A DNA stretch of 64,000 nt, from the NCBI GenBank assembly GCA_964570965.1, contig CAZNAX010000003.1:3874-67873 (forward strand). The letters are read 5' to 3'. Source of the DNA: an uncultured Desulfatibacillum sp. GTDB taxonomy: Bacteria; Desulfobacterota; Desulfobacteria; Desulfobacterales; SpSt-501. The notes beneath the pieces are model-generated. The model saw only the letters and a list, made by a program, of their open reading frames with translations, was not told the origin of the DNA and made no database searches. Each line of letters begins with the position of its first letter. Within the stretch, counting starts at the first letter, position 1. The position numbers were made by a program, and so were the translations under genes. Positions 7,173 to 60,872 of the stretch are shown in pieces.

Positions 7173-9824
7173 CTATTTTTTTTCAGTCGGCGGCTTGGCG
7201 CCGCCCTCCTGCAGAGCGATTTCCTGCAAGCGGTTGAGCTGGTTCAAGGCCTCGAGCGGCGACATCCGGGAGATATCCAGTTCACGCAGCTTTTCGAGCA
7301 CCTTGCTTTCCGCCGGCCGAAACAGGTCGAGTTGCGTCGGCGCCGATCGCGCAGACCGTGCAGAAAGATCCGGCCATGCGAATCCGTGTTCACCGTTTTC
7401 AATGCCCCAGAGGATTTTCTTGGCCCGGGCGACCACTTCGGCCGGGATGCCGGCCAGCCGTGCAACCTGGATCCCATAGCTGCGATTGGTACCGCCGGGG
7501 ATCAGCTTGCGCAGGAAGATAATCTCGTCGTTCCATTCCCTAACCGCAATGTTGAGATTGGTGACGCGCGGCATGTGGTCGGCCAACTCCGTGAGTTCAT
7601 GATAGTGGGTGGCGAAAAGAGTCTTGACGCCCTTGTGGCGCAAGTCATGCAAGTATTCGGCCACCGCCCAGGCGATACTCAGTCCGTCGAACGTGCTGGT
7701 CCCGCGGCCGATCTCATCCATGATGACCAAGCTGCGCTCGGTTGCGTTGTGCAGGATGTTGGCGGTCTCCTGCATCTCCACCATGAAGGTGCTCTGTCCC
7801 TGGGACAGATTGTCCAATGCGCCCACGCGCGTGAAGATCCGGTCGACGAGGCCGATGCCGGCCTGGCGCGCTGGAACGAAGCCGCCCATCTGCGCCATGA
7901 TGACCGACAGCGCCACCTGGCGCAGGACCGTTGATTTGCCGGCCATGTTGGGCCCCGTGATGATCAGGACTTGATGGGCATCATCGTCCATCTCGATGGT
8001 ATTGGGCACAAAGCGCTCGGCGGTGATCATTTTTTCGACCACCGGGTGCCGGCCGTCTTCGATTCGGATGGCGCCGTCCGCCAGGATCTGAGGCCGGCAG
8101 TAGCCGCTCTGAGCGGCCACCTCCGCCAAGTTCAGCAGGCAATCCAGCCGGGCCAGAAAACGGGCGACCGACTGAATCTTGGGATGGTGCCGCACGACCT
8201 CGTCCCGGATCTCCAGCAACAGCCGGTGTTCCAGAACGGACCGCTGTTCCTCAGCGCCCATGACCTTCGTTTCGAATTGTTTGAGCTCCTCGGTGATGAA
8301 ACGTTCGGCATTCACGAGCGTCTGTTTGCGGACATAGTGCGGTGGTACCGCATGGATCCGGGTCTTCGGCACTTCGATGTAGTAGCCGAACACCTTGTTG
8401 AAACTTACCTTGAGGGCCGTGATTCCGGTGCGCTCCTTCTCACGCAGCTCCAAATGAGCCAGATGGCCTTTGGCATCCGAGCTGATGCGAACCAGTTCAT
8501 CGAGTTCCGAGTTGAAACCGGTTTTGATCAGACCGCCTTCGTGGACAGCGAGCGGTGCGTCCTCACGAATGGCGCGTTGTATCAGCTCCGCCAGATCGGT
8601 CAGATCGTCGGCCGGTTCGGTCGGCCGATAGCATTCGGAGCTAAAAGCGGTGAGCGCCGCCCAGAGCGCCGGCAGCACCTGCAGCGAACTTTTTAATGCC
8701 ACCAGATCACGCGCGTGTGCCTGCCCCATCACCGCCTTGCTTCCGAGGCGTTCCAGGTCTTGGACGTCTTTCAGGCACTCCCTCATTTCGCGACGCAGCC
8801 CTTCGCGCTCCTTGCCCTCGGCGACCGCCGTCAGGCGCATTTCGATTTCGCGGGCCTCGCGCAGCGGGCGCCGCAGCCAGTCGGCCAGAAGCCGTGCCCC
8901 CATGGCCGTGCGGGTGTGATCGAGTACGCTCAGCAGGGTTCCACGGCGGGTGCCGGTGCGAATGTTCCGAATCAACTCCAGGTTTTGGCGGCTGACTTCG
9001 TCCACCATCAGGCAGCTTTCCAGCCAGTAGGCTTCCAGCTGGCTCAGATGCGCGGTTTTCTGTTTCTGAGTCTCGCCGACATAAAAAACCAGCGCCCCGG
9101 CGGCACTCACCCCGGCGGTGAAGGACTCGCAGCCGAATCCCTCCAGCGTCAGGGTGCCCAGCTGTTCGGTCAGCCGTTCGTAGCCGCGGCGATAGTCGAA
9201 CGCCTGGTCTTCGATATAGCTGAGGGCGGCATCGCCGAATATGGCCGGCAGTCGCTGAATCCAAGATTCCCCAGGGTTTCTACGGACACTCTCGGGCAGC
9301 AGGATCTCACGCGGACCCAATCGCCGCGCTTCGTCTACAACCTGGGCAGGTTCGGAGGATTCGGTCACTCGGAACGTCCCGGTGGATATGTCCAGGTGAG
9401 CCAGCCCGCTCACCCCTTTGGCCTGAAAAACCGACAGGATAAAATTATTCGTGCGCGCGTCCAGAAATTCCTCGTCGATGATCATGCCGGGGGTGATGAC
9501 GCGCACGACCTCGCGCCGGACCAAGCCCTTGGCGACAGCAGGATCCTCCACTTGGTCGCAGACCGCAACCTTGTAGCCGCGTTCAATGAGCCGGGCGATG
9601 TAGCCGGTCACGGCCCGGTGCGGAACTCCGCACATGGGGACCGGTGACGGATCGTTCTTGTTCCGGGAGGTCAGTGTGATTTCGAGGATGCCGGAGGCGA
9701 GCTCGGCATCCTCGAAAAACATCTCATAGAAATCCCCCATGCGGTATAAGAGAATGGCATCCGGGTAATCGCCCTTGATGGCCAGATACTGCTGGAGCAT
9801 GGGAGTTGATTTGGAAGGGTTCAT
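7173..9824 (-). CDS. mutS: DNA mismatch repair protein MutS
   Basis: 883 aa. 'TPMLQQYLAIK', 'LLYRMGDFYEMFFEDA', Walker A 'ITGPNMAGKST', 'TFMVEMQETA', 'DEIGRGTSTFDG'. Confidence 0.97.
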   Translation of the reverse strand: MNPSKSTPMLQQYLAIKGDYPDAILLYRMGDFYEMFFEDAELASGILEITLTSRNKNDPSPVPMCGVPHRAVTGYIARLIERGYKVAVCDQVEDPAVAKGLVRREVVRVITPGMIIDEEFLDARTNNFILSVFQAKGVSGLAHLDISTGTFRVTESSEPAQVVDEARRLGPREILLPESVRRNPGESWIQRLPAIFGDAALSYIEDQAFDYRRGYERLTEQLGTLTLEGFGCESFTAGVSAAGALVFYVGETQKQKTAHLSQLEAYWLESCLMVDEVSRQNLELIRNIRTGTRRGTLLSVLDHTRTAMGARLLADWLRRPLREAREIEMRLTAVAEGKEREGLRREMRECLKDVQDLERLGSKAVMGQAHARDLVALKSSLQVLPALWAALTAFSSECYRPTEPADDLTDLAELIQRAIREDAPLAVHEGGLIKTGFNSELDELVRISSDAKGHLAHLELREKERTGITALKVSFNKVFGYYIEVPKTRIHAVPPHYVRKQTLVNAERFITEELKQFETKVMGAEEQRSVLEHRLLLEIRDEVVRHHPKIQSVARFLARLDCLLNLAEVAAQSGYCRPQILADGAIRIEDGRHPVVEKMITAERFVPNTIEMDDDAHQVLIITGPNMAGKSTVLRQVALSVIMAQMGGFVPARQAGIGLVDRIFTRVGALDNLSQGQSTFMVEMQETANILHNATERSLVIMDEIGRGTSTFDGLSIAWAVAEYLHDLRHKGVKTLFATHYHELTELADHMPRVTNLNIAVREWNDEIIFLRKLIPGGTNRSYGIQVARLAGIPAEVVARAKKILWGIENGEHGFAWPDLSARSARSAPTQLDLFRPAESKVLEKLRELDISRMSPLEALNQLNRLQEIALQEGGAKPPTEKK

Positions 9825-9872
9825 TAAAAATGGGGGATAGTAGGAAGAGCAATAAATTAATCGGATGACACC

Positions 9873-10262
9873 TCAGCTTGGCGCAACCGGTGAGGTGACG
9901 GAAGTTTCTCCCGAACCCGACGGCGGGTCGGCCGGAGGCTCGCCTTTCAGCCGTGCCAGCTCCGCCCTCAAGGTTTCCATCTCCTTGCGTTGGGCAGCGG
10001 TCTCCGTCGTCAAGCGCGATATGGCCTTGCGACGACGCCAGCGGTCCAATGCGCTGAAAAGATAGGCCACGATCAGCCCGAAAACGAAAAACAGCAGGTG
10101 GAAGGCCACCAGCGGCAGGTTCGGCGACTGGTATTCCGGAAACACCCTGAGATGAACGCGAAGGACCTGCTGGGTCTCCAGAAAATATCCCTCGTTCTGA
10201 AAAACGACCAGAGCCATCCCACCCAGGATCAGTAGCCAGAAAAACAGCTTCGTTTTTTTCAT
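9873..10262 (-). CDS. LapA-domain-like small inner-membrane protein with C-terminal coiled coil
   Basis: Start set to ATG 10260-10262 (MKKTKLFFWLLILGG), preceded by GGAGG. Two TM helices followed by an 'RWRRRK' and heptad-rich tail, as in DUF1049/LapA proteins. Assignment by resemblance only. Confidence 0.55.
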   Translation of the reverse strand: MKKTKLFFWLLILGGMALVVFQNEGYFLETQQVLRVHLRVFPEYQSPNLPLVAFHLLFFVFGLIVAYLFSALDRWRRRKAISRLTTETAAQRKEMETLRAELARLKGEPPADPPSGSGETSVTSPVAPS

Positions 10263-10349
10263 CCCCAGACCTCCATCCACCCTCTGCAAGCAAGTCAATA
10301 CCAGGGGTGCGCAACCTGCCGATGTGCTTCGATCGCGCGGTTACAACGG

Positions 10350-10925
10350 TTAGATCCTTCGGAGCACGCGGGCCGGCCCTTTGCGGAGATTGGGCTGCTT
10401 GGCCGCCGCGGAGCCAGAGGTCGTCGCCGCGGCATTCGGCGTGCGGTTAAGATCGATCGTTTGAAAATGGGGCTTTAGCAACTCGAACGTCTCCTGAAGG
10501 TGCTGCGGGATCACCCGCACATCTGCAAATACGGCCAGCGCATTGGTGTCACCGGACCAGCGGGGTACGATATGAAAATGCAGATGCTCTTCGATTCCCG
10601 CTCCGGCGACCCTCCCGAGGTTCAGCCCGATGTTGAAGCCTTCTGGACGCATAACCTTCTTGATAATGGCGACGGACTGCTCGACAGTTGCCAAAAGGAT
10701 CCCCATCTCATTCTGATCGAGCTCGCCCAACGCCGATACGTGCCGCGCAGGAGCCACCAGCAAATGCCCATTGATGTATGGGTACTTATTCATGATCACC
10801 AGAGTGTCCTTGCCCTTGTACAGGGTAAGCTGGTCATTCACGGAAATGGCGTTGCAGAATACGCAGCCTTTTTCTTTGGCGCCGAGGATGTACTCGATCC
10901 TCCAGGGTGCCCACATGGTTTTCAT
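10350..10925 (-). CDS. HIT-family nucleotide hydrolase/transferase
   Basis: 191 aa. Histidine triad 'EEHLHFHIVPRW' and 'NKYPYINGHLLVAP'. Confidence 0.85.
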   Translation of the reverse strand: MKTMWAPWRIEYILGAKEKGCVFCNAISVNDQLTLYKGKDTLVIMNKYPYINGHLLVAPARHVSALGELDQNEMGILLATVEQSVAIIKKVMRPEGFNIGLNLGRVAGAGIEEHLHFHIVPRWSGDTNALAVFADVRVIPQHLQETFELLKPHFQTIDLNRTPNAAATTSGSAAAKQPNLRKGPARVLRRI

Positions 10926-11057
10926 GCTCAGTGCCTTCTCCCGAAAATCAATTCGTTACGGCCGCCGATCGCGGGCAGCTTTTGGGCTCGGAAGTTTTTA
11001 TCTTAATTATTAACAGGTTAGGATCATCACTTAATTTAATCGGTTTGCTCCGAAAAC

Positions 11058-11795
11058 TCAACCATTTTTTCGGTCGAGAATTACCACCTCAAGGGATCCC
11101 CAGGCCCCCATTTTTTCAGCCACCACGATGAGCACACCGAGGACGCCGGTGATTCGTTTGGCAAATTCGATTCCGGCGGGGATGTCTTGCTCGCAGTGAA
11201 TCCGGTTGCCGATAGCGGTGGCGGATGCGTCCGCCAGCGCGCCGGATCGCGACACCACGCACACGGCATCCGCCCGGCCGAAGCTGAGCGAGTGTCCCAC
11301 CGTACCCGAGGACGTGCACGCAGCGATGGGATCGTTCTGTCCACCGATGCGAATGCCGATCCGCAGGCTGAGCGGCGAAACGCCGGCGAAAACGGCTACC
11401 GTAACCGCCTCGCCGGTTTGCAGAAAAATGTCCCCCCCGTTTTCAATGATCACCTCCTGCGTATGGGCCAGAAGTCCGCGCCCCACATGCTCGGCCAAGG
11501 CTCCGGCCACAGCCGCCATGGGGCCAACCCCGGCGGCGTTGCCGGCCGCGATCATGTCGTGCACTATGTTCGGTGCCGGGCCGGTCAGCGGCCAGGGATT
11601 CAGCGTCGAGACGAACTCGGGATGCCGGCGAATGTAAGTCTCCAGGTATCCCCTCTGCTCCAGAATCCTGTCCCGAGTCACTGCGCTCAAATCACTCCCC
11701 GCCTGAACATGAAGGTCGGTTTCCTTCACGCTGACCTCAAAGGCCGTCAGCCGTCCGCTAGCGACTAGAGTGCGATAGGTTCTCGGTTCGACCAT
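11058..11795 (-). CDS. UPF0280-family (ApbE-like fold) protein
   Basis: 245 aa. 'VKETDLHVQA', 'GVGPMAAVAGALAE', 'IIENGGDIFL' match my recollection of UPF0280 proteins. Function unknown. Confidence 0.7.
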   Translation of the reverse strand: MVEPRTYRTLVASGRLTAFEVSVKETDLHVQAGSDLSAVTRDRILEQRGYLETYIRRHPEFVSTLNPWPLTGPAPNIVHDMIAAGNAAGVGPMAAVAGALAEHVGRGLLAHTQEVIIENGGDIFLQTGEAVTVAVFAGVSPLSLRIGIRIGGQNDPIAACTSSGTVGHSLSFGRADAVCVVSRSGALADASATAIGNRIHCEQDIPAGIEFAKRITGVLGVLIVVAEKMGAWGSLEVVILDRKNG

Positions 11796-11843
11796 AGGAT
11801 ACGAGTCGGCTCGAACAAAGATGCGGGAAGGCCTGGGTTTGAG

Positions 11844-13034
11844 TCAAGCCTCACCGTTTCCGCTGGGCAAGTATCCGGGCCGCAAGGCTTCGGGGCAGAG
11901 ATCCAAAAAATACCGATCCGTCATGCCGGCAATGAAATCCCTCACCACCTCGGCCGGTCGATGCCGCCCGAGGTAGTCGTCGGACATGCCGTTTAAAAAA
12001 CCTTGAAAAATGACCGAGTCCATGCGCCGCGTTTCCAACTCCTCTAAAAAACGATCAAAAAGCCGCTTGAAGAGCTCCCGGAGCAGGGCGGTGTGCGGCT
12101 TCATGCGGGGGTTCAGATAAATCCGCTCAAGATTGAACCCTTTCAGTTGCTTGAGCGCTTCGGATACCTCGGGGCTGAAAGCGACAAAATCTTTGCCATA
12201 GCTGGTTCGTATGATGTCGGTCGTCAGGCGGAAGACGATGGTCCCGTTGGTATTGCCGAGCACCGCCACGCTAGCGGAGGGCAATTCGGACCGCCCGATA
12301 AGACCCAGACGAATGGCGTCTTCGATATCTCGGCCGATATAGGCGACGGTGTCAACCATCCGCACCACGCAACCCTCCAGCGTCATGGGGACCAACTCCG
12401 TACTGGAGTGGCTGACTTTAGCCGCCATTTCCGCTTGCAGGTCAGCAAACGATTTATTCCGATGGGGCGCCAGCTCGGGAGTGTGAACCTCGCCGTCATG
12501 GCACAGGATCCCGTCCAGGGTCTGCAGACACAGGTTCCAGCCCTTGCCCTTGCGCTCGACGAGATCCAAAAAGTGAACGCTTTGAACATTGTGATGAAAT
12601 GAACCGATGCCGTGCTCCTGGCAAAGCTGGGAAAGGAAGCGCTCGCCGTCATGGCCGAACGGCGTGTGCCCGATATCATGACCCAATGCGATCGCCTCGA
12701 TGAGATCCTCATTCAGGCCCAGAAAACGACCGATCGACCGGCCGATCTTGGAAACCAGTTGAACGTGCAATACCCGGTGAGTGATGTGATCGTTGCGGAT
12801 CAAGTAAAAGACCTGCGTCTTGTCGATGTAACGCGTGTAGGCGTGCGAGTGAAGGATCCGGTCCACATCCACGGAAAACGCCTGCCGATACCCTTCGATC
12901 AGCAACTCTTCTGCACGACGCCGAACGGCACGCGCATTGGGGGTGGCATAAGGGGACAGGTTCTGCTCCTCTTTCCGGTCCAGGAGCTTACGGATCGACC
13001 TCAAATCCGGGGGTTCAGATTTCACGACGTTCAA
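11844..13034 (-). CDS. dGTPase-family HD-domain triphosphohydrolase-like protein
   Basis: 396 aa. 'DRILHSHAYTRYIDKTQVF', 'HRVLHVQLV', 'ALGHDIGHTPFGHDGE'. The only plausible start is TTG 13032-13034, with GGAGG 6 nt upstream, inside the 3' end of the ATP-grasp gene. Confidence 0.85.
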   Translation of the reverse strand: MNVVKSEPPDLRSIRKLLDRKEEQNLSPYATPNARAVRRRAEELLIEGYRQAFSVDVDRILHSHAYTRYIDKTQVFYLIRNDHITHRVLHVQLVSKIGRSIGRFLGLNEDLIEAIALGHDIGHTPFGHDGERFLSQLCQEHGIGSFHHNVQSVHFLDLVERKGKGWNLCLQTLDGILCHDGEVHTPELAPHRNKSFADLQAEMAAKVSHSSTELVPMTLEGCVVRMVDTVAYIGRDIEDAIRLGLIGRSELPSASVAVLGNTNGTIVFRLTTDIIRTSYGKDFVAFSPEVSEALKQLKGFNLERIYLNPRMKPHTALLRELFKRLFDRFLEELETRRMDSVIFQGFLNGMSDDYLGRHRPAEVVRDFIAGMTDRYFLDLCPEALRPGYLPSGNGEA

Positions 13035-13800
13035 TCATCGCCTCCATCAAACGGCAATAGTCAATCCCGGCTTTCCGGAAACCTTCTCGGCCGTATTTCA
13101 TATTCGCCTCCAATACATAAAATTCTCCGTTGTACCGGCAGACATCAAGGCCGACATCATCCCATCCACACGCCCGAGCCGTGTGGGCCGCCAGCTTAAG
13201 CGCTGTTGCAGGCACTGAATCCAAGCAGATCCTCGCCCCCAGAGATACATTGGATCGAAAATCGGTATCCGGCGCGATGCGCCCATACGCGTGGACGATG
13301 CGAGAGCCGATGACGACGATCCGCATATCGCGATCGATGGGAAGATAGTCCTGGATGTAGGCAACCGTATTGCATTCGCAATATTGCTCCAGGGCCTCCT
13401 GATCACGGATCAGGAAAACGCCCTTTCCCTGGGCTGATCCGCGGGCGATCTTGGCAATGAAAGGGAATTTGAAATGACCGGCGATCGTCTTTTTCTGACG
13501 TTTTCCGTAGAAAACGCGCGTGCGCGGATGGGGAATGCCGAGCAGATCAAACAGAGCCGTCTGTTTGATCTTGTCCTGGACGCACTTGTACGTATGGTAG
13601 CTGGGGAACGTACGCTTGCCGATTGAATCGAACAAATCCGCATAGAAAGTGGTCGGGTAGTAGATGATGTCTGCCTTTCGGATCTCATCCCGGTCCTCGG
13701 GCGGATATTCATTGAAGTTGGTGCGCACGCCGAGGGTAACGACATTGCGGCAATTTCGCAAGCGGGATTCCAGCGCCAAGACTTTGCGTTGAAATTGCAT
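13015..13800 (-). CDS. RimK-type ATP-grasp ligase
   Basis: 261 aa. 'FPFIAKIARGSAQGKGVFLI', 'YIQDYLPIDRDMRIVVIG', 'DVGLDVCRYNGEFYVLEANM' fit the ATP-grasp fold. Stop TGA at 13015-13017. Confidence 0.8.
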   Translation of the reverse strand: MQFQRKVLALESRLRNCRNVVTLGVRTNFNEYPPEDRDEIRKADIIYYPTTFYADLFDSIGKRTFPSYHTYKCVQDKIKQTALFDLLGIPHPRTRVFYGKRQKKTIAGHFKFPFIAKIARGSAQGKGVFLIRDQEALEQYCECNTVAYIQDYLPIDRDMRIVVIGSRIVHAYGRIAPDTDFRSNVSLGARICLDSVPATALKLAAHTARACGWDDVGLDVCRYNGEFYVLEANMKYGREGFRKAGIDYCRLMEAMIERREI

Positions 13801-13869
13801 AACGCCTTGATCACCTAAAAATGTTCAACAACTGGGTTTCATATCCGTTACGGCACATGCCGGTTCTCT

Positions 13870-14394
13870 TCACGCGGGGGGCGGCTCGTTGAAGAATTCC
13901 ATGATCGTTTTCAAGGCGCGTTCGGTATGGGTTCCCCTCCAGAACACTCGTCCGCACTTCGGGCAGGTGCTGAAATTCACCTGGTTGTTCCATACATAAT
14001 CCGGCACCGACCTTCGCACGGCATGCTTGGCAACGGCAATGATTCGTTCGTTGCAGATGATGCAGCGCGAAAAAGATTGGATGTCGTCCGGCCGGAGGCC
14101 CGCTTCGCGGATCAACTCGACAACTTGATCCGCAGGGTCGTTGGCTTGGATAAAGATCGTTTTTAGGCCCCTACGCTCCCCGGCCAAACGCTGCGTCCGG
14201 GTCAGAAAAATTCGATCCGGCCCGATGCGTTGCATAAAGGATCCGTTTGGGTATTGGCTTTCCGACAGGGTGTCAAACCCCATGAGCCGAAGCCATTTGA
14301 CCAGCCGGCCCAAGGTTTTTTCCGCGGCAAAGGTGGTTGGCATACGTTTCGCGACGGGCAGTGAATTCGCCATGCGGGTGGCTGAGGATACCAT
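13870..14394 (-). CDS. Mut7-C (PIN-like) RNase-domain protein with C-terminal zinc ribbon
   Basis: 'LGRLVKWLRLMGFDT' N-terminal motif and 'CIICN...CPKCGRVFWRGTH' ribbon. The true start may be ATG 14341-14343 or 14371-14373; no clear SD at any candidate. Confidence 0.75.
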   Translation of the reverse strand: MVSSATRMANSLPVAKRMPTTFAAEKTLGRLVKWLRLMGFDTLSESQYPNGSFMQRIGPDRIFLTRTQRLAGERRGLKTIFIQANDPADQVVELIREAGLRPDDIQSFSRCIICNERIIAVAKHAVRRSVPDYVWNNQVNFSTCPKCGRVFWRGTHTERALKTIMEFFNEPPPA

Positions 14395-14577: not shown

Positions 14578-17022
14578 ATGCGGAAATGGAAAATTCTTTT
14601 CGGCGCCCTGGCGCTCATCGGCGTTGCGGTGGCTCTTCTGGCCAAGGACCAGTTGAACCGCGACATCATCCAGTTAAAAAGCGGCCGTATCATCCCGGTC
14701 GACCGGGTTTGGGAGTCCGGGGCGGATCTGTTTTACGAAAACGATCAGGAGATCCACTTTATCAGCTTGGCGGATATTCAATCGATCGAAAAACAGAGCC
14801 TCTCGATCTGGTTGCGCACGACCGGCGCTCAGATTGCGAAAATTGCAGACGGCCCCCTGAACGCTATCCATCCGCTGGTCAAGCGCGGCCTGGGGTTGAT
14901 GCACTCGTCGAATCCCGTCCATTGGTTGCTGATCGGCACGCTGGCGCTGCCGATCGGGTTGGTGCCGACCGTGCGCTGGTTCCGCAAGCGGTCAACTAAA
15001 ACGCAACCGGTTCAGCTGGCCGCTCCGCCCGAAGGGCCATGCCAGGATATGCCCAATCGCGCCGACATGGTGCGCTTTTTTTTAGGTTTATATCGTCAGC
15101 AGCTTGGATTCGGTCCAGAGGTTCCGACGGACTTTGTCCAGCTGCCGTCCCCCCCCGCAGGAACCCATCAGATCTATGAACTGCGGGTTAAGAACGGCGG
15201 GGAATGGATCAAGCGCCGCATGACGCTCGGGCCCCTGGGCGAGGACAGCGGAAGCAGAAGCAAATGCTACTATGTCATCTTTGATCAGCATTTGGTAGTC
15301 AAGATACCTCCCAAGCCGATTGCTGATTTCGAAGACTATGTCGCTAGCATCAAGAAGGAGCGGCACATTGTCGAACAGCTCCGTCCGAAGGAGTGCATCG
15401 CACCCAGAGTGTCCGTCATTTTAAGCCAGATCCATCACCTGCCGCCTCAACTCGGCTTAGCGCCTGATCTGCTAGAAGAAAAATACATCGCGTGGCTGCG
15501 AAAAACACCTGCCTATCAGGACTATTTGAAGATCAATGGCACGTTTGTTTTTTTCATGGACTTGTCCCGTTATTACTTCCTGAGTCACATCATCGAAAGC
15601 CTCCACGATTTGGCGGATCCGATTCGTTCCGAAATCAATTCCACCGCCGATTTGATACGCTATCCGGCGAAATTCAAAGAGCGCTACGGTGAGCAGAACG
15701 AATCGGTCGGTTTTGAAATCCGGGATCTCTATCACCAATGCGAAGCCGAAGTGCGCCAGCTTCTGAAAAACGCTGGAAAGTCTGCGGCGGTAACGCCCTA
15801 CCGCACCCAGCTCTGGTTCCTGAACTTTCTTGAAAAGAAAGACATCGGGGCATCCGACTCGGCTGTTTCCGGCCCGATCGCAGATCAGGTCGCAGCCATC
15901 TTCGAGCGCTGGTTCGAGAAATACGTCGGTGCCGTGGATGCCTATCTCGCCGCCATTCGGGCTTTTACGGCGCGCCTCTGTCTGGAGCAGAATCGCCAAA
16001 TCATTTCCGGTATCGTTACCAATTTGTTGGAGCTGCTCGCCTGGCTCAACGAAAGGAAAGTGGCGATGCGGGATTTGAAGCCCGACAACCTACTAGTGGC
16101 AGGCGACCCACAGAACTACCCCGCGTTTCTGCGGTCGGCCTCGGACTATTCGCTGGGCTTCATCGATGTGGAAACGGCCGTCTATTTAGGCTCCGCTGAA
16201 GGAGCCACCACGAAACAGCCCCTGCTGGGAGGAACCCCTTATTACGCCACCCCCTCGCACCTGTTTCCCAACCATGCGCTTCAGGTCTGTCTAAATGACT
16301 CCGCCTGGGTCTTGCATTTTCAGGACTGGTATGCGGTTCTGGTGATGACTTTCAAAACCGTCACGGGAAACATTCTCTTTGACCGCACGGCCAAACTGTT
16401 TGGCGACATAAAGAACCGAGTTGCCGACGCCATGCGCCAACGGACCTCGTTGGAATCCATCATGGAGGAGGTCAGCCGCAGGTTCTGGCGCAGCGCAGCA
16501 GCGGAGTTTCGTGCCAAGATGAAAGCGCACGAAAGCGCGTTGCAATCGGTGGAAGTCGACCTACCCCCAACCGCGAAAGCGTTATTTATCCACGTCCTCC
16601 GGCGCGACCTCGCATCCATCGACGCATCGGTGCGTCAGCTCGTCGATGGCCAGAGGTATTTCTCATCCCCAGAAAGCCGCGAACAGCTGCAAAAGTCTTC
16701 CCGCCGGCGGGTCTGTCAGATTTTGAAGGCCCTCCAGACCAAAATGCAGCTCGATCCACCGGCGTCGGACGCGCTGCAGGCCTCCGAGCGTTTCCTGCAC
16801 CACCTGTCGATCTTAAAGGCGCTGATGGAGCGGAAAGTCCAGATGATCGGCGTCCTGGAAGGCGCGAATCTGCCCCGACTGAACGCCCACGAGCTGCTGC
16901 TGCTCATGTTCAACAGCGTCTTGAAAACCATGTGCCGTGAGGATTGGTATACCTTTACCGAAGATACACCCCGCCCGATGCTGCCGCCCGACGACGAATT
17001 GTCACTGGCCACTACGATTTAA
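14578..17022 (+). CDS. 2-TM membrane protein with divergent Hanks-type protein-kinase-like domain
   Basis: 814 aa. AAGGAA SD. TM1 'ILFGALALIGVAVALLA', about 90 aa extracytoplasmic, TM2 'WLLIGTLALPIGLVPTV'. Kinase landmarks: 'LVVKIP' (VAIK Lys), 'MRDLKPDNLL' (16066-16095), 'GFIDVETA' (DFG position), 'GGTPYYATPS' (APE position), 'DWYAVLVMTF'. Confidence 0.75.
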   Translation: MRKWKILFGALALIGVAVALLAKDQLNRDIIQLKSGRIIPVDRVWESGADLFYENDQEIHFISLADIQSIEKQSLSIWLRTTGAQIAKIADGPLNAIHPLVKRGLGLMHSSNPVHWLLIGTLALPIGLVPTVRWFRKRSTKTQPVQLAAPPEGPCQDMPNRADMVRFFLGLYRQQLGFGPEVPTDFVQLPSPPAGTHQIYELRVKNGGEWIKRRMTLGPLGEDSGSRSKCYYVIFDQHLVVKIPPKPIADFEDYVASIKKERHIVEQLRPKECIAPRVSVILSQIHHLPPQLGLAPDLLEEKYIAWLRKTPAYQDYLKINGTFVFFMDLSRYYFLSHIIESLHDLADPIRSEINSTADLIRYPAKFKERYGEQNESVGFEIRDLYHQCEAEVRQLLKNAGKSAAVTPYRTQLWFLNFLEKKDIGASDSAVSGPIADQVAAIFERWFEKYVGAVDAYLAAIRAFTARLCLEQNRQIISGIVTNLLELLAWLNERKVAMRDLKPDNLLVAGDPQNYPAFLRSASDYSLGFIDVETAVYLGSAEGATTKQPLLGGTPYYATPSHLFPNHALQVCLNDSAWVLHFQDWYAVLVMTFKTVTGNILFDRTAKLFGDIKNRVADAMRQRTSLESIMEEVSRRFWRSAAAEFRAKMKAHESALQSVEVDLPPTAKALFIHVLRRDLASIDASVRQLVDGQRYFSSPESREQLQKSSRRRVCQILKALQTKMQLDPPASDALQASERFLHHLSILKALMERKVQMIGVLEGANLPRLNAHELLLLMFNSVLKTMCREDWYTFTEDTPRPMLPPDDELSLATTI

Positions 17023-17062: not shown

Positions 17063-17091
17063 TTGACGCCGACGGTTCAACCGTGTAGGTT
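17063..17091 (+). promoter_or_regulatory. candidate sigma70-type promoter with an embedded dyad, upstream of the AMMECR1 gene
   Basis: TTGACG (17063-17068), 17-nt spacer, TAGGTT (17086-17091). The spacer contains the perfect dyad ACGGTT-c-AACCGT (17072-17084). The ATG at 17102 is only about 10 nt downstream, so the transcript would be near-leaderless. Confidence 0.3.
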
Positions 17092-17101
17092 TTAAGTCGT
17101 G

Positions 17102-17701
17102 ATGGATGACCGATCTCAACCCCTGGATTCCGAGAATGGCCAACTGCTCTTAAAGCTGGCGCGAAGCACCCTGATGGAAAAATTGGGCCGCAGGCTTCCC
17201 CCGGCCGAAGCGGAACGCCTGCAGTCCGCACTGACGGACCCTCGGTTCCAGGCACGACGAGGCACGTTCGTAACCCTCACCTTGGCGGGTAAACTCAGAG
17301 GGTGCATCGGCAACCTCTTCCCGACCGATCCGCTGGCCGAAAGCATCCGGCGCAACGCTGTTCATGCCGCCTTTCAAGACCCGCGCTTCCCACCTCTCAC
17401 CGCGGAAGAACTCGGCCGTGTCAGCATCGAAGCCAGCATCCTTACCGATCCCCAGCCGCTGCCTTTCTCCAGCGCACAGGACCTTCTGCAAAAACTGCGT
17501 CCCCACCTCGACGGGGTGATCATCCGGCAGGGTCACGCCAGCGCCACGTTCCTGCCCCAGGTCTGGTGCCAACTGACGAACGCCGAAGACTTCCTGGACC
17601 ACCTCTGTCTCAAGGCGGGCCTGCCCCGGGACGCGTGGAAGCGATTCAGGCTAGAGGTGGCGACCTATCAGGTCCAGTGCTTTGAGGAACCCTCGCATTA
17701 G
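17102..17701 (+). CDS. AMMECR1-domain protein
   Basis: 'RRGTFVTLTLAGKLRGCIGN', 'AAFQDPRFPPL', 'HASATFLPQVW' AMMECR1 motifs. The ORF-track start at 17099 is GTG; the adjacent ATG at 17102 is preferred. Confidence 0.85.
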   Translation: MDDRSQPLDSENGQLLLKLARSTLMEKLGRRLPPAEAERLQSALTDPRFQARRGTFVTLTLAGKLRGCIGNLFPTDPLAESIRRNAVHAAFQDPRFPPLTAEELGRVSIEASILTDPQPLPFSSAQDLLQKLRPHLDGVIIRQGHASATFLPQVWCQLTNAEDFLDHLCLKAGLPRDAWKRFRLEVATYQVQCFEEPSH

Positions 17702-17834: not shown

Positions 17835-18572
17835 TCAGGCGCCCGTCGAAGGCAGGAATTGGATCGCGGTCCGTTTCAAACGGATGACATCCAGCCGATT
17901 CAATCGAACGCTGGCCTTGACCACCTCGCCGTTTACCCTGACCCTGGCCAGTCCGCCCACGTAACTGAGAAACCAATTGTCTGCCAATCGGTTGATCACC
18001 GCTGCCGTCGATCCAACCCCAACCCCCCGCACGATGATTTCAGCGTTCGACGATTTGCCGATCCGAACCGGTGTATTGCCCAATAGCAGTTCTCTTTTCT
18101 CTCCGGAGAGGATGACCAATACCCCCTTGAGATCGGTTCGAGTCTCGACGAGCGTCTCCTGGGGCGCTGCATCGCGCTGGGCTGGCGGTTGGTGTTGCTT
18201 CAGCAGCGCCCTGAACTTTTCGGTGTCGATCTGCATCGTCTTGATGATCGATGCGGAAAAGCGATCGGAACCGATGTTGCCTTTCGGATTGGAAAACACC
18301 AGGGTGTGTTTCCCGATACGGATTTCATCTCCATCGGCCAACCAATGCGCTTTGATCCTATGGTCGTTTACGAACGAGCCGTTTTCACTTTTTAAATCGA
18401 TCAGCAGGAATTCATCTCCGATGGATTCAATTTTCGCATGCTGGAACGATACCGCCAAATTGTCGATGACGATGTCGTTGACCGGGTGTCGGCCGATGAC
18501 GAACGCATCCCCCATTCCGATGGGGAAGCTGCGTAATTCTTTACCGCTGTACCGCAATGATAAGATAGCCAT
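17835..18572 (-). CDS. tandem FHA-domain protein
   Basis: 245 aa. FHA1 'FVIGRHPVNDIVIDNLAVSFQHAKIE...LIDLKSENGSFVNDHRI'. A second, more degenerate FHA-like half 'VRIGKSSNAEIIVRG...VNGEVV'. Confidence 0.8.
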   Translation of the reverse strand: MAILSLRYSGKELRSFPIGMGDAFVIGRHPVNDIVIDNLAVSFQHAKIESIGDEFLLIDLKSENGSFVNDHRIKAHWLADGDEIRIGKHTLVFSNPKGNIGSDRFSASIIKTMQIDTEKFRALLKQHQPPAQRDAAPQETLVETRTDLKGVLVILSGEKRELLLGNTPVRIGKSSNAEIIVRGVGVGSTAAVINRLADNWFLSYVGGLARVRVNGEVVKASVRLNRLDVIRLKRTAIQFLPSTGA

Positions 18573-18664
18573 TTTCAGCTCCTCTAAAAGTCCAAGGATG
18601 ACCGGCCCGCCGACCGCTGCGGCGGGGCACTTGCATCTGGCTTCTTCACGTAGGCTGCCCAGCC

Positions 18665-20848
18665 CTACATAAATTCCTGCAAATTTCGCAGCCGGAGGAT
18701 CATCTCAGCGTGTTCGCTGCTGGCGAAGTGAACAAATGCATCCGCGTTGGCCATGGCTTGCTTGTCATAATGAACCACCGATCCGGCAATTTTAGCCGGG
18801 AGCGCCGGGCCCGATGCAGCCACCGGCTTCGCGTTGACATGTTTTAACAAGCGCCGAGCGATGAGGTGCGCCTCTTTTACGGTCGTCATCGGCAGGATCG
18901 CGATGAAAAGATTGCCCCTCATTGTTCCGATCCAATCAGCGCCGCGCAACTGCCGCTGGATTTCCGACAAAAGCGCAGCCCTCGTCTCCATTGGCACATC
19001 GGGGCCGTCCGGAACCGCAGACGCGGGGCCCCCTTTCGAAAAAGAAAAGGTGATTCCGCTTAAATCAGTCCCATATCTCGCCGAACGCGAGATTTCCTTC
19101 TCCAACAGCGCATAAGTAATTTCTTGGTTGAAAGCAACCTCATGGATCCTGCCCCCGTCGTTTTGCCCGTTTTTCTGGGCCTGCTGGATCCGTTCGAAAA
19201 TTTGTTGAAAATCGTTTTCATCCAGTCGCCGCCCGAAGTTATCGGCGCGCAGCTTCTTTAATACCTGCTTCAGCTCTTGATCCTCGGACAGTCCCTCCTC
19301 AAGGCGTTGTAACAGCGTCAATTGCCGCGGATCCCTGGCATTAAGGGATGCACTGTACGACGCCAGCTCGGCACGTATCGCTTCGACGCTGGCGTCCAAG
19401 CGCGCCTTCAAGCGGTTTTCCACCTCATCGACGAGTTGAGGGGCGATTCCTTCGCCGCGAAGGCCCTCGGCCAGCTGGGTGTTGAAAAAATTCGCCAATT
19501 TCCGGAGCCGCTCGTCCCCGGCCCCCTCCATGTTGGATCCGACGTTTAGCATTTTCGGACCGAGCCGCTCGATGTAGCCGACCAAGATGTCGCACAAGGA
19601 TTGAGCGCTGCCGGCCTGCCGCTCGATCTCGGTTGCCAAATACAAAAACCGCGCCAAACCAGCGGGATCGGCCTTCCAGCGGTTCGTCAAATCGGCTTCG
19701 TCCACCCCGATCGCCTCGGCGCCTTGCTTCACCCATTCGGCGAGTTGAACATCCTGGCGGTCCTTGCCCAACCGCTTGACTAAATCCAAGAAATCCGACA
19801 GCGGCATCCCTTCTGCGACCAGGCCATCTCTTATTTTGGGCAGCAGCCGTCGCAGCTCCCTGTCGGAGGGGACGATTCGCTGCAGCACGAACGCCAAACG
19901 CTCAATGGAAGTCTTGCCTCTATCGTACTCCTTCCGGAGCAACTCCAGAATGACGGTATCCGATAGCTCTTCGGCCTGCTGGCTGACCTCCTCGGGTGAA
20001 TCCATCAGGATTCCCAGCGAGCTCTGGGTGTGAATCGCCTCCTGGAGTTCGTGCTTCATTTTCACCAAAGCGGAGGCCAACTCCGAAAGGCTGAGCGAGG
20101 AGCCTTCGGATAACATCTTTCGGACTTCATGCCCCAGCAACGCGAGGCGCTCGGCAATTGAACGGGAAGGCCCCTGAGCGAGGTCCGCCTCGCTGTTCCG
20201 GCCGGCCGCACCCCGCGCGACTAAATTTCTTGAAAAAGTCAACGGGTCGTTTATCAGTTCTTTCAGGGACAGACCTTGATCGACCTCCTCCAGGAGCAAT
20301 TTCCCCGCAATCATGCCTAACGCTTCCTGGTATTGGCGGGAGGCGTTCAATTCATCGCTGAGCGTCTCCGACTTTGCGACGGTCCCTTTTGGAACGATCC
20401 GATCATCCTCCGTCACCTTCTTATAGGAGACATGATTGATGCGAAGGTGCGTGATCTGCATCGAGCCGCAGGCGCTTTTCATCAGATCGGCTGTCGGGAA
20501 GTTGCGGGTATCCAGGAATATTTTCAAAAACCCCTCGACCTCACGCTTCTGGACATCCTGAAGCACGGCAATCGAAGTCACCTTCGCCTTGTTAAAATGA
20601 GATGACATCTTGAAGTAATTCAGGCTCGAATCCAGCGGTTCGTCCTCGAGGAAGAACTGCCCCCGGCTGTAAAGCAACACCAGCGGTGAAGCGGTTTTGA
20701 GCAATTCGCATATGGATCGATAGAACTCCTCCACCGCCTGGACCGAATAGGGATGAACGAGACCATACATGGATACGCGATTAAACATGAGCACGAAGGA
20801 CTTGCCGGCCTTGTGATGGCCTTTTTTGATGGAATGCAATTTGATCAT
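18665..20848 (-). CDS. 727-aa uncharacterised helical protein with C-terminal degenerate GGDEF-like domain
   Basis: Intact ORF whose ATG overlaps the kinase stop (ATGA at 20845-20848). The last ~170 aa align by eye to the GGDEF fold ('RGADWIGTMRGNLFIAILPMT...AHLIARRLLKHV...IAGSVVHY'), with GG(D/E)EF replaced by RGNLF. Confidence 0.7.
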   Translation of the reverse strand: MIKLHSIKKGHHKAGKSFVLMFNRVSMYGLVHPYSVQAVEEFYRSICELLKTASPLVLLYSRGQFFLEDEPLDSSLNYFKMSSHFNKAKVTSIAVLQDVQKREVEGFLKIFLDTRNFPTADLMKSACGSMQITHLRINHVSYKKVTEDDRIVPKGTVAKSETLSDELNASRQYQEALGMIAGKLLLEEVDQGLSLKELINDPLTFSRNLVARGAAGRNSEADLAQGPSRSIAERLALLGHEVRKMLSEGSSLSLSELASALVKMKHELQEAIHTQSSLGILMDSPEEVSQQAEELSDTVILELLRKEYDRGKTSIERLAFVLQRIVPSDRELRRLLPKIRDGLVAEGMPLSDFLDLVKRLGKDRQDVQLAEWVKQGAEAIGVDEADLTNRWKADPAGLARFLYLATEIERQAGSAQSLCDILVGYIERLGPKMLNVGSNMEGAGDERLRKLANFFNTQLAEGLRGEGIAPQLVDEVENRLKARLDASVEAIRAELASYSASLNARDPRQLTLLQRLEEGLSEDQELKQVLKKLRADNFGRRLDENDFQQIFERIQQAQKNGQNDGGRIHEVAFNQEITYALLEKEISRSARYGTDLSGITFSFSKGGPASAVPDGPDVPMETRAALLSEIQRQLRGADWIGTMRGNLFIAILPMTTVKEAHLIARRLLKHVNAKPVAASGPALPAKIAGSVVHYDKQAMANADAFVHFASSEHAEMILRLRNLQEFM

Positions 20849-21771
20849 TGTTCGTCGTATTCCATGTATTTCCGCCCATAGCCGCGCAGCGCATCCAGGA
20901 AATGGGCGCAGGAAGGAAATCGCTGCCGCGGATCGGACGCCGTAGCCGTAGCCACGATGGCGTCCATCTCCGGATGGAGACGCGGGTTGGCCTGGGACGG
21001 CGGTTTAATGAAAATTGGCTGCTCGTTGAACTTTCTCCTGAGCAGATCCTGGTAAGACGAGCAGGCAGCCAACGGCAGCTTATCAACCACGAGCCTGAAA
21101 AGCAGTACGCCGGCCGCGTAGACATCCGTACGGGCATCGGTTTCTGCCAGCCTGACTTGCTCCGGAGCCATGTAGAGTGGACTCCCGCGAAGCGCCGGGC
21201 CGACGTCGGTGGGGTGGCCGGCCATTTTGGATATCCCGAAATCGGTGATGATCGGAATGAGGCCGGCCGTGCACATCAAAATGTTCTCGGGCTTGATGTC
21301 CAGATGAATCACGCCCCGGCCATGCGCGTACCCCAAAGCCTCCAAGAGTTGTCTGAGAACTGAGAGAGTCGTTTTCAGGGGCAGCATCCGGCGGGAGGGG
21401 AGAACGTTGCGCGCGATCTTATCAAGAACCGCCGATAGGGAGGTTCCATCGATCAATTGCATGGTGAAATATCGGAAATGCTCATTCGTTCCGATATCGT
21501 ATATCGGCACGATATTCGGATGCGATAGACCGGCAACGGCCTCGGCTTCCTGTTCAAAAAGACGGATGGAATCATCCGTACACATGCACTTTGGCAGCAC
21601 TTTCACCGCAATTCGCCGATTTAAAGATTGCTGATACGCGATGAAGACGATCCCCATGCTGCCGCGCGCCAGCTCCTTCAGGATGGTCGCGTTACCGATG
21701 CTCATGCCGATGGCATGCGTAGCATCATATGGGTCGGTATAAGTGACATTCATCGCTTCGACTGCCATCAT
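20845..21771 (-). CDS. Hanks-type Ser/Thr protein kinase (kinase domain only)
   Basis: 308 aa. 'LARGSMGIVF', 'IAVKVL', 'HLDIKPENIL', 'TDFGISK', 'SPLYMAPEQ'. Confidence 0.9.
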   Translation of the reverse strand: MMAVEAMNVTYTDPYDATHAIGMSIGNATILKELARGSMGIVFIAYQQSLNRRIAVKVLPKCMCTDDSIRLFEQEAEAVAGLSHPNIVPIYDIGTNEHFRYFTMQLIDGTSLSAVLDKIARNVLPSRRMLPLKTTLSVLRQLLEALGYAHGRGVIHLDIKPENILMCTAGLIPIITDFGISKMAGHPTDVGPALRGSPLYMAPEQVRLAETDARTDVYAAGVLLFRLVVDKLPLAACSSYQDLLRRKFNEQPIFIKPPSQANPRLHPEMDAIVATATASDPRQRFPSCAHFLDALRGYGRKYMEYDEQ

Positions 21772-59519: not shown

Positions 59520-60872
59520 ATGAAATGCATCGGCAGATACATCATCCGTGGCTTGCTGGGCCGCGGCGGCATGAGCAAGGTCTACAAAGTCGAAATCCCC
59601 CGAATCGCAAAAATCGTCGCTCTCAAGCGACTCGAACCCCATCCGCTGCTCACTCGCCTGATGGGCGCGGATAGGATCCGCGATGGATTCCTCTCCGAAG
59701 CCGTAAAGCTGGCCCGCCTGAACCACCCCAACATCGTTGCCATTCGCGACTTCGATGAGGCGGATGACGGCAGTCTTTTCTACACCATGGATTATTTCTT
59801 CTCCAGCCTCGGGCAATGGATCGGCGAAACGCGGCGCGTCGAATCCCCCACGCGCACCATTCGTCTGGACCGCGCCATCGATATCGTGCGCCAGACCCTC
59901 ACGGGCCTGGCCTGCCTCCACCATCACGGCATCATCCATCGGGACATCAAGCCTTTTAACCTGCTTTTCGACGACCAGAACGTGCTTAAAATCTGCGATT
60001 TCGGGCTCTCCGGGCTGCGAGGAGAATCTCTAGGCTCTCCGCCGCAGTTGAAGATGGGCTCTCCCTGGTATGCCGCTCCGGAACAGGAGACCGACGCCGA
60101 CGCGGCCGATGCCCGCGCCGATCTCTACGCAGTTGCGGTCACGTTTTACCGCATGGTCACCGGGGTGCTTCCGGCCGCCTCCCCCCAACCGCCCTCCGAG
60201 CTGAATTCCGACCTGGATGACTCCTGGAATCACTTCATTCTTAGGGGCCTGGCCCGAGATCCGAACCAACGTTTTGGGAATGCACGCGAAATGTTGGACG
60301 ATCTCCGCGGACGGGAGGCCGAGTGGCAGGCACGCCAAGACCGGATCTGCCGAATGCCGGGGGCGGCCGTCGTCTCAGCGGCCGGCCCAAACCCACACCT
60401 CCATGCCCTGCGATCGTTTCCGATCAAGATCGATCCCCGCCGGGCGAAATCCGAATTCGGGGCCGACGATCTGTGGCGCCCTGCGGCATACGGTGTTGAG
60501 CGCTTCTGCGCATTCCCGGACGGAACGGTACGGAATACTTCCTCCGGCTTGATCTGGCAGCAGTCGGGAACCCCCTACCCCGTCTCCTGGAGTGAGGCGC
60601 ACGGGTATGTAAACGGGTTGAACCGCGCCCGGTTCGCGTCCCGCGACGGATGGAGGCTTCCCACCATCCCCGAGCTCATGTCGTTGCTGAGGCCGACTCC
60701 GCACGGTCGCGACTTCTGTGTGGAGCCCATGTTCGACGCTCGCCAGAAGACGTTGTGGAGCTCCGATTGCCGATCCTTCACGGCGGCATGGTTTGCAGAC
60801 AGCGAGATGGGCTTTGTGGGTTGGCGGGACCTCGATGGGGGATGTTACGCTCGCGCGCTGTGCAGCGCATAG
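59520..60872 (+). CDS. Hanks-type Ser/Thr protein kinase with C-terminal DUF1566 (Lcl C-terminal-like) domain
   Basis: 450 aa. 'GRGGMSKVYK', 'VALKRL', 'HRDIKPFNLL', 'CDFGLS', 'SPWYAAPEQ'. C terminus 'SGLIWQQ...VSWSEAHGYVNGLN...DGWRLPTIPELMSLL'. Confidence 0.85.
   Translation: MKCIGRYIIRGLLGRGGMSKVYKVEIPRIAKIVALKRLEPHPLLTRLMGADRIRDGFLSEAVKLARLNHPNIVAIRDFDEADDGSLFYTMDYFFSSLGQWIGETRRVESPTRTIRLDRAIDIVRQTLTGLACLHHHGIIHRDIKPFNLLFDDQNVLKICDFGLSGLRGESLGSPPQLKMGSPWYAAPEQETDADAADARADLYAVAVTFYRMVTGVLPAASPQPPSELNSDLDDSWNHFILRGLARDPNQRFGNAREMLDDLRGREAEWQARQDRICRMPGAAVVSAAGPNPHLHALRSFPIKIDPRRAKSEFGADDLWRPAAYGVERFCAFPDGTVRNTSSGLIWQQSGTPYPVSWSEAHGYVNGLNRARFASRDGWRLPTIPELMSLLRPTPHGRDFCVEPMFDARQKTLWSSDCRSFTAAWFADSEMGFVGWRDLDGGCYARALCSA

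Follow-up and report, generated by a model that had tools for sequence, protein, structure and literature searches.

A remodelled, probably active Hanks-type Ser/Thr kinase family of Desulfobacterales, often encoded next to AMMECR1

Protein kinases of the Hanks, or eukaryotic protein kinase (ePK), lineage are marked off from small-molecule kinases of the APH and ChoK types by the Lys of the RDLKPxN loop, the Gly-Thr (GT) of the P+1 loop and the Asp of helix alpha-F. Pseudokinases typically lack one or more of the catalytic Lys, Asp and Asn and the metal-binding Asp, and kinase cores interrupted by large inserts can stay active, as in SRPK and PINK1. AMMECR1 and Memo, two proteins linked to human disease, are conserved from archaea to humans; to our knowledge, no reaction is known for either. 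AMMECR1 has been described as an uncharacterised enzyme with a catalytic Cys and a persistent link to a radical SAM enzyme and a dioxygenase-like protein (Balaji and Aravind 2007, PMC2034487). Here we analyse a gene for an 814-amino-acid (aa) kinase-like membrane protein, followed by an AMMECR1 gene, in a 64,000-nucleotide (nt) stretch of DNA (the window) from contig CAZNAX010000003.1 of an uncultured Desulfatibacillum sp.

The gene is an ATG-to-stop open reading frame (ORF) of 814 codons, the longest at its site in the ORF listing and translation, with a Shine-Dalgarno-like AAGGA site 8 nt 5' of the ATG. A protein 100% identical to its product is present in the databases, and full-length homologues reach down to 39% identity.

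14578..17022, + strand: gene for the 814-aa kinase-like membrane protein, stop included (ORF, translation, homologues)
15994..16527, + strand: kinase C-lobe, aa 473-650 (Pfam, hhalign, RIPK1 alignment, Foldseek, conservation)

Profile comparisons together with a predicted structure establish the C-lobe of this protein as homologous to that of Hanks/ePK kinases. The Pfam Pkinase model (PF00069) matches aa 475-613 over profile positions 99-212 (E 6.3e-5, 22.9 bits), and 18 of 18 diverse family members match it at E <= 0.01 (best 1.2e-6). In hhalign, the family profile aligned with a kinase alignment at 96.1% probability (E 3.5e-9), with confident columns at 478-600. The target alignment consisted of PknB, PKA, CDK2 and a canonical 308-aa kinase encoded elsewhere in the window; the last of these, taken alone, gave 84% probability. 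The best phmmer matches in the PDB were RIPK1 and CaMK kinases (E ~0.004). A full-length AlphaFold 2 (AF2) model, built on a 76-sequence alignment, has a pLDDT of 80.9 and a pTM of 0.75, with low confidence at aa 91-155 and in the last 22 residues. When this model was compared with the PDB by Foldseek, protein kinases made up 49 of the 50 matches listed, most at a probability of 0.9-1.0. The first-pass annotation, which read the protein as a divergent eukaryotic-like kinase, had named the absence of a significant kinase-profile match, or a predicted structure without the bilobal kinase fold, as results that would count against it; what we found is a significant match (Pkinase E 6.3e-5, hhalign 96%) and a model whose Foldseek matches are kinases, though with weak E-values and TM-scores. 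Helices 575-650 follow the alpha-F Asp region in the model. Because the confident hhalign alignment stops near residue 600, we infer by position that residues ~600-650 form alpha-G to alpha-I of the C-lobe.

Residue conservation was scored over 146 family representatives, mutually at most 50% identical, that include soluble forms and a distant subfamily. Every motif string on which the first-pass annotation had built its kinase reading lies where it had been placed: VVKIP at 240-244, KKERH at 259-263, MRDLKPDN at 497-504, IDVETA at 529-534, GGTPYYATPS at 551-560 and QDWYA at 582-586. IDVETA stands at the DFG position, GGTPYYATPSH (551-561) is the P+1/APE region, and QDW (582-584) holds the alpha-F Asp, D583, which hhalign aligns to the DVYS/DWW Asp of PknB and PKA. 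Counts among the 146 representatives are as follows.

K242, beta3 Lys: 146/146
E261, alpha-C Glu: 123 Glu and 18 Asp of 146
R498, HRD Arg: 145/146
D499, catalytic base: 146/146
K501, catalytic-loop Lys: 145/146
N504, metal ligand: 144/146
D530, metal ligand: 145/146
E532, family-specific Glu after the DFG Asp, in place of Gly: 146/146
T553, P+1 Thr: 144/146
D583, alpha-F Asp: 146/146

The catalytic loop, M497-R-D499-L-K501-P-D-N504, thus has the Asp, Lys and Asn of HRDLKxxN, while the HRD His position is always hydrophobic (M, I, L or V). The Asp of DFG is retained but the full motif is not: its Phe position is V, L or F, and its Gly has become Glu (ID[VLF]E). The replacement of HRD by MRD, DFG by IDV and APE by TPS (558-560), noted at first pass in this one protein, proved to be its form of changes seen throughout the family, and the retention of the catalytic Asp, the loop Lys and Asn and the metal-binding Asp is likewise family-wide (144-146 of 146). 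Judged from these representatives, the changes in HRD, DFG and APE are fixed family traits at non-catalytic positions, and the phosphotransfer residues are under strict purifying selection.

Because the phosphotransfer residues are retained together with the RDLKPxN Lys, the P+1 GT and the alpha-F Asp, the 814-aa protein is probably an active, heavily remodelled Ser/Thr protein kinase of the Hanks/ePK lineage, and the conservation among the representatives lends support to the earlier suggestion of an active atypical kinase rather than a pseudokinase. ATP would be bound between a divergent N-lobe, with its Gly/Ser loop (218-228) and K242-E261 pair, and the C-lobe, and the gamma-phosphate would pass to a Ser or Thr of a protein that the GGTPYYATPSH segment holds as substrate. 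In membrane-anchored forms an extracytoplasmic beta domain may modulate this activity; the domain would be dispensable, since about half of the family lacks it.

15043..15612, + strand: N-lobe-like region, aa 156-345 (AF2 models, invariants, spacings)

The N-lobe-like region comprises an N-terminal helix, five strands, a Gly/Ser-rich loop, K242, the E261 helix, an insert and a hinge. A conserved amphipathic helix (aa 161-175) lies ahead of the sheet; AF2 then places strands at 209-220, 229-234 and 238-243, with K242 near the end of the last, and a helix at 251-268 carrying E261. The first-pass annotation saw no Gly-rich loop ahead of the Lys, but a conserved one is present: GPLGEDSGSRS (218-228), where a turn joins the two strands ahead of the K242 strand. 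Its G218, P, L, G221, E, D, S, G225, S226, R and S228 are invariant or nearly so, and G221, G225, S226 and S228 are conserved across the 146 representatives. The hinge is the strand FFMD (aa 325-328), of which M327 and D328 are invariant. The spacing of 17 between G225 and K242 is that of G55-K72 in PKA, and the landmark spacings G225-17-K242, K242-19-E261, D499-5-N504, D530-23-T553 and T553-7-S560 all equal those of PKA and/or PknB. Because sequence and fold searches with this region alone gave no significant match, we infer its identity as an N-lobe from its position ahead of the C-lobe, its predicted topology, its invariant residues and these PKA/PknB-like spacings.

15604..15993, + strand: helical insert, aa ~343-472, between hinge/alpha-D and alpha-E (AF2 helices 346-471, pLDDT ~85-95)
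16531..16932, + strand: C-terminal helical domain, aa 652-785 (AF2 helices 664-785, pLDDT ~85-95)
16993..17019, + strand: C-terminal tail DELSLATTI, aa 806-814 (alignment; pLDDT < 50, disordered in the model)

K242 and D499 are 257 residues apart. The spacing table gives four insertions relative to PKA and PknB: +37 in the N-lobe, helical and ahead of the hinge strand; +126 from hinge to alpha-E; +13 from N504 to D530, with the sequence AGDPQNYPAFL between the catalytic loop and IDVETA; and +11 before alpha-F. Behind the kinase core, the first-pass annotation had left some 200 aa of helical sequence without an assignment. This stretch is indeed helical in the AF2 model, but about 50 aa of it (~600-650) belong by position to the kinase C-lobe, and the extra domain covers ~652-785. 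Pfam searches with the extracytoplasmic loop, the helical insert and the C-terminal domain of three members returned scattered chance-level matches alone. In the tail, L810 and T813 hardly vary within the close family, and a Thr at -1 with a hydrophobic last residue is kept in ~100 of the 146 representatives; the conserved DELSLATTI may be a docking, degradation or phosphorylation motif.

14587..14649, + strand: first transmembrane segment or signal anchor, aa 4-24, with MRKWK ahead (Kyte-Doolittle 19-residue window <=2.24; AF2 helix 2-26)
14662..14793, + strand: extracytoplasmic beta domain of six strands, aa 29-72 (AF2 secondary structure, alignment invariants)
14917..14982, + strand: second transmembrane segment, aa 114-135, followed by RWFRKRSTK (hydropathy 1.4-1.7; clearly hydrophobic in other members)

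The 814-residue length, two membrane helices and intervening loop of ~90 aa annotated at first pass were all recovered: the ORF is confirmed, the hydrophobic segments lie at aa 4-24 and 114-135, and the loop they enclose (aa 25-113) measures 89 aa. It consists of the beta domain, in which G36, W45 and Y53 are conserved in the family alignment and which has no Pfam match, and a helix leading to the second transmembrane segment, itself in the low-confidence AF2 stretch 91-155. Since basic residues flank both hydrophobic segments on the cytoplasmic sides, the protein fits an N-in, loop-out, C-in topology, and it is best explained as a bitopic (two-transmembrane) inner-membrane protein with a predicted cytoplasmic kinase part.

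A word-indexed search found at least 409 homologues of the protein, most of 810-826 aa; the best 120 are nearly all of that length, with full-length coverage down to 39% identity. Family members are labelled hypothetical proteins by NCBI/PGAP, and at JGI many carry the label 'serine/threonine protein kinase'. The models of Pfam, NCBIfam and PADLOC cover neither the family as a whole nor its accessory regions, and there is no paralogue of the protein elsewhere in the 64-kb window. A profile of 76 members, searched against 1.84 billion proteins (cluster representatives at 50% identity), matched 495 at E <= 1e-3 and 314 at E <= 1e-30; the family is discrete, and at that database size its profile stops short of the bulk of canonical kinases. 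Of the 150 best representatives, about half have a length of 630-700 aa and start at profile position ~150-165. They lack both transmembrane segments and the extracytoplasmic loop with its beta domain, and the conserved module is therefore aa ~156-795.

A scan with one genome per GTDB species found 192 relatives, of which 80 loci were kept and numbered (L001 and so on). All 80 are from Desulfobacterales or Thermodesulfobacteriota (among them Desulfatibacillum, Desulfosarcina, Desulfocicer and Olavius symbiont Delta 1), bar two contigs, and the named soluble members are likewise Desulfobacterales. The two contigs, L012 (JBLMXM010000293.1) and L029 (JAIVWA010000286.1), had been placed in Hyphomicrobiales and Gammaproteobacteria bins; misbinning, and not horizontal transfer, is the probable explanation, because they are short and carry the Desulfobacterales neighbours Mut7-C, RimK and HD. 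The phyletic profile that the first-pass annotation had proposed to build is thus that of a discrete family, and among all members placed taxonomically it appears confined to Desulfobacterales.

17099..17701, + strand: AmmeMemoRadiSam system protein A (AMMECR1), 200 aa (Pfam AMMECR1 E 9.5e-49; TIGR04335 196.5 bits, cutoff 99 bits)

The AMMECR1 gene starts 76 nt after the kinase stop codon on the same strand, and its RGCIG cysteine motif is intact. Synteny was counted over species-level loci whose downstream sequence runs to 1.9 kb or more. In the subfamily of at least 39% identity, the kinase gene is followed within 2 kb by a co-oriented AMMECR1 coding region at 38 of 42 loci: a stand-alone A gene at 22 and, at 16, the C-terminal half of a Memo-AMMECR1 (B-A) fusion. 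After the fusion there usually come a polytopic membrane protein of ~700 aa, which has an aminopropyltransferase/spermidine-synthase-like domain, and then a TIGR04337 radical SAM enzyme (326 bits in related loci, cutoff 220 bits); the neighbour identities were confirmed with TIGR04335/6/7. The complete set, B-A fusion and radical SAM enzyme, follows the kinase gene at related loci such as L009, L036 and L040, for which these positions were noted.

L009, 8544-10061
L036, 8974-11085
L040, 12133-13323

No Memo (B) or radical SAM gene lies within the 64-kb window, which therefore does not hold the full AmmeMemoRadiSam set. The fusion of the 16 related loci has a signal-peptide-like N-terminus. The N-terminus of the radical SAM enzyme, MKKLSRRQFIYCGAAF, is twin-arginine-like; an exported radical SAM enzyme would be odd. 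The distant subfamily (33-38% identity, L059-L080) has other neighbours: a YfiH/PgeF-like gene of ~260 aa directly adjoins in 11 loci, and ATP synthase a, c and I-like genes lie 2-3 kb away.

Otherwise the window is an ordinary chromosomal region, with MutS, an AmiC-type amidase, RpoD, Tex, a GAF-cyclase and a dynamin-like protein.

9724-14394, - strand: divergent block of Mut7-C RNase, RimK-like ATP-grasp, HD/HD_assoc phosphohydrolase, PRK04334-family protein, HIT, a 196-aa protein with no match, then MutS
17835-21771, - strand: convergent operon of an FHA-domain protein (245 aa), a 727-aa protein and the 308-aa canonical Pkinase (HLD instead of HRD)
59520-60872, + strand: second canonical Ser/Thr kinase paralogue, a 450-aa ORF (32% identical to the 308-aa kinase over 281 residues)

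The gene order of the divergent block is kept in most related Desulfobacterales loci, and its Mut7-C/RimK/HD trio looks like a unit. The 727-aa protein of the convergent operon has no match in Pfam, NCBIfam or PADLOC. We rejected a functional link between the 814-aa protein and this operon and treat the arrangement as local synteny, because its conservation does not go beyond the five closest relatives (L006, L007, L008, L013 and L058).

Several results weigh against reading the 814-aa protein as an active kinase. Its Pkinase score of 22.9 bits is below the gathering score of 31.7, the formal PF00069 threshold; the family profile reaches just one kinase among PDB sequences (E 0.0056); and the Foldseek matches have weak E-values (best 2.4e-3) and target-normalised TM-scores of at most 0.40. 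The Glu of APE is absent, position 560 being S, A or T with Glu outside its five commonest residues, and the canonical salt bridge between this Glu and the alpha-I Arg is therefore presumably absent as well. The N-lobe, taken alone, gave 0.1% probability when columns 156-345 were aligned by hhalign to the PknB, PKA, CDK2 and 308-aa kinase alignment, no Pfam match at E <= 10 for three N-lobes, and nothing better than E 0.26 when a separate AF2 model of aa 156-345 (pLDDT 86.4) was submitted to Foldseek, where lipocalins and Bet-v-1-like folds were mixed with BRAF and APH-type N-lobes. Of the VAIK Lys and alpha-C Glu annotated at first pass, the strings stand at their positions, but an N-lobe significant by profile or fold does not. 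This unrecognisable N-lobe, the sub-threshold Pfam score and the alteration of three canonical motifs (MRD, IDV, TPS) would fit a pseudokinase or scaffold that has lost catalysis and serves as a membrane-bound docking platform. We consider that very improbable: the substitutions fall outside the catalytic positions, K242, D499, K501, N504 and D530 are retained in 144-146 of the 146 representatives, and the HRD His is also replaced in active AGC kinases (Tyr, as YRD, in PKA). A kinase-fold enzyme whose unusual N-lobe and helical insert form a pocket for a small molecule or membrane lipid, perhaps a substrate of the AmmeMemoRadiSam pathway to be phosphorylated or nucleotidylated, would account for an N-lobe, a 126-aa insert and a C-terminal domain that match nothing known, for the membrane anchor, and for the tight adjacency to AmmeMemoRadiSam genes, which in 16 loci include the membrane protein and the radical SAM enzyme. 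Memo-AMMECR1 contexts were reportedly linked by Burroughs et al. in 2019 to nucleotide-base and isoprenoid modification. Such an enzyme is nonetheless unlikely, given that the protein retains the Ser/Thr-protein-kinase Lys of RDLKPDN and also GGTPxYATPSH and the alpha-F Asp, two features that peptide-binding ePKs typically have and APH/ChoK types lack; all sequence and fold matches are protein kinases, and an entire subfamily lacks the AmmeMemoRadiSam context.

An active protein kinase, the reading that we prefer, could be an ordinary stand-alone receptor-type Ser/Thr kinase that merely inherited its place beside AMMECR1, and this is a real possibility. The region is a housekeeping one (MutS, RpoD, Tex, amidase), and the link to AMMECR1 co-varies with the conserved upstream order Mut7-C, RimK, HD, HIT, MutS, genes conserved about as well as AMMECR1 at the same loci; the adjacency may therefore be inherited synteny without functional meaning. 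It is lost in L007, L013 and L047 and is found at none of the 18 loci of the <39% identity subfamily. In the 76-nt spacer, moreover, a 5-bp hairpin ACGGTTCAACCGT is followed by GTAGGTTTTA (17072-17094, + strand), a weak hairpin with a T-run; the 7 terminator-like sites in the region do not exceed the shuffle expectation of 5.0 +/- 2.4. On the other side, the adjacency outlasts a break in upstream synteny at L001/L081 and L004/L023, it outlasts the change of partner from an A gene to a B-A fusion with membrane protein and radical SAM enzyme, and the downstream partner is on the same strand in all 42 neighbour-cluster members. These observations are suggestive but specific to one subfamily, and we hold a functional link between kinase and AmmeMemoRadiSam to be tentative, possible but short of probable. 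If it exists, the kinase would act together with the downstream proteins, either as their regulator or because it provides or recognises a substrate in phosphorylated form. Bolder still, and distinctly doubtful, is the proposal that the kinase is a dedicated fourth AmmeMemoRadiSam component in Desulfobacterales, whose phospho-mark would be read or acted on by Memo/AMMECR1; the mark would sit on the tail or loop of the kinase itself, on AMMECR1/Memo or on a pathway substrate. Within the searchable literature we found no paper that ties AmmeMemoRadiSam to a kinase or addresses AmmeMemoRadiSam function.

The family amounts to a natural experiment in which the HRD His, the DFG Phe and Gly and the APE Glu have been replaced and more than 180 residues inserted while the phosphotransfer residues were kept. 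It would mark out which ePK features are dispensable, with an N-lobe that has drifted past sequence recognition. The part most worth following is the AmmeMemoRadiSam association. A kinase directly upstream in 38 of 42 loci is a testable lead for AMMECR1/Memo and suggests that phosphorylation has a regulatory role or that a substrate is phosphorylated; should the gene order simply have been inherited, the protein is one more lineage-specific bacterial Ser/Thr kinase. A kinase acting as fourth component would, if real, give an experimental handle on AMMECR1/Memo biochemistry, and the receptor-kinase/MEMO1 phosphopeptide interaction, so far assumed to be an animal invention, would then have its counterpart in bacteria.

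The binding of an ErbB2 phosphopeptide by animal MEMO1 (Qiu 2008, cited in PMC7694686) has been taken for a derived trait, on the ground that receptor tyrosine kinases are missing from bacteria (PMC7694686). The likeness to our loci is the association of a receptor-type kinase with a Memo-family protein, a Memo-AMMECR1 fusion following the kinase gene in 16 of them. The resemblance is at the level of association; the window has AMMECR1 but no Memo, and the kinase here is of the Ser/Thr and not the Tyr type.

Among ePKs, the alignment with RIPK1 and the CaMK group runs locally from alpha-E through the P+1 loop (aa 477-565); at E 0.004 and with no N-lobe similarity, it gives no ground for a shared function. 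The insert-bearing SRPK1/2 and PINK1 are among the best Foldseek matches (~400-600 columns, probability 0.9-1.0), but identity is 10-12%, TM-scores are at most 0.36 and root-mean-square deviations are 11-19 A, and these kinases are eukaryotic, soluble or mitochondrial. The SRPK and PINK1 inserts probably also lie at positions other than those in the 814-aa protein. The kinase domain of the class IV lanthionine synthetase LanL (NF038150) matches the kinase part weakly (aa 472-632, E 5e-4); a lanthipeptide synthetase was rejected at 18 bits against a cutoff of 650, since the protein has neither a lyase/cyclase domain nor lanthipeptide genes around it. Anti-phage defence kinases (PADLOC PD-T4-6 and MkoA) were likewise rejected, their C-lobe matches being weak (E 6e-4 to 1e-2, at most 17 bits) and the context housekeeping.

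The kinases of the PknB type differ from the 814-aa protein in several respects. Its HRD His is M, I, L or V, its DFG is ID[VLF]E, its APE is TPS and its Pkinase score falls below gathering; its Gly loop reads GxxGxxxGSxS, as against GxGxxG. Four insertions (+37, +126, +13 and +11) and a C-terminal helical domain of ~135 aa have been added, the kinase lies C-terminal to two transmembrane segments rather than N-terminal to one, and PASTA or other known sensor domains are absent. What the protein shares with PknB, PknA and StkP (PF00069) is a homologous C-lobe with the xRDLKPxN loop, the metal-binding Asp, the P+1 GT and the alpha-F Asp, along with the same G-loop-to-Lys and Lys-to-Glu spacings and the overall plan of an extracytoplasmic domain, membrane segment and cytoplasmic kinase. 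Both in predicted function and in evolution, it stands nearest to the bacterial Hanks-type receptor Ser/Thr kinases, as exemplified by PknB.

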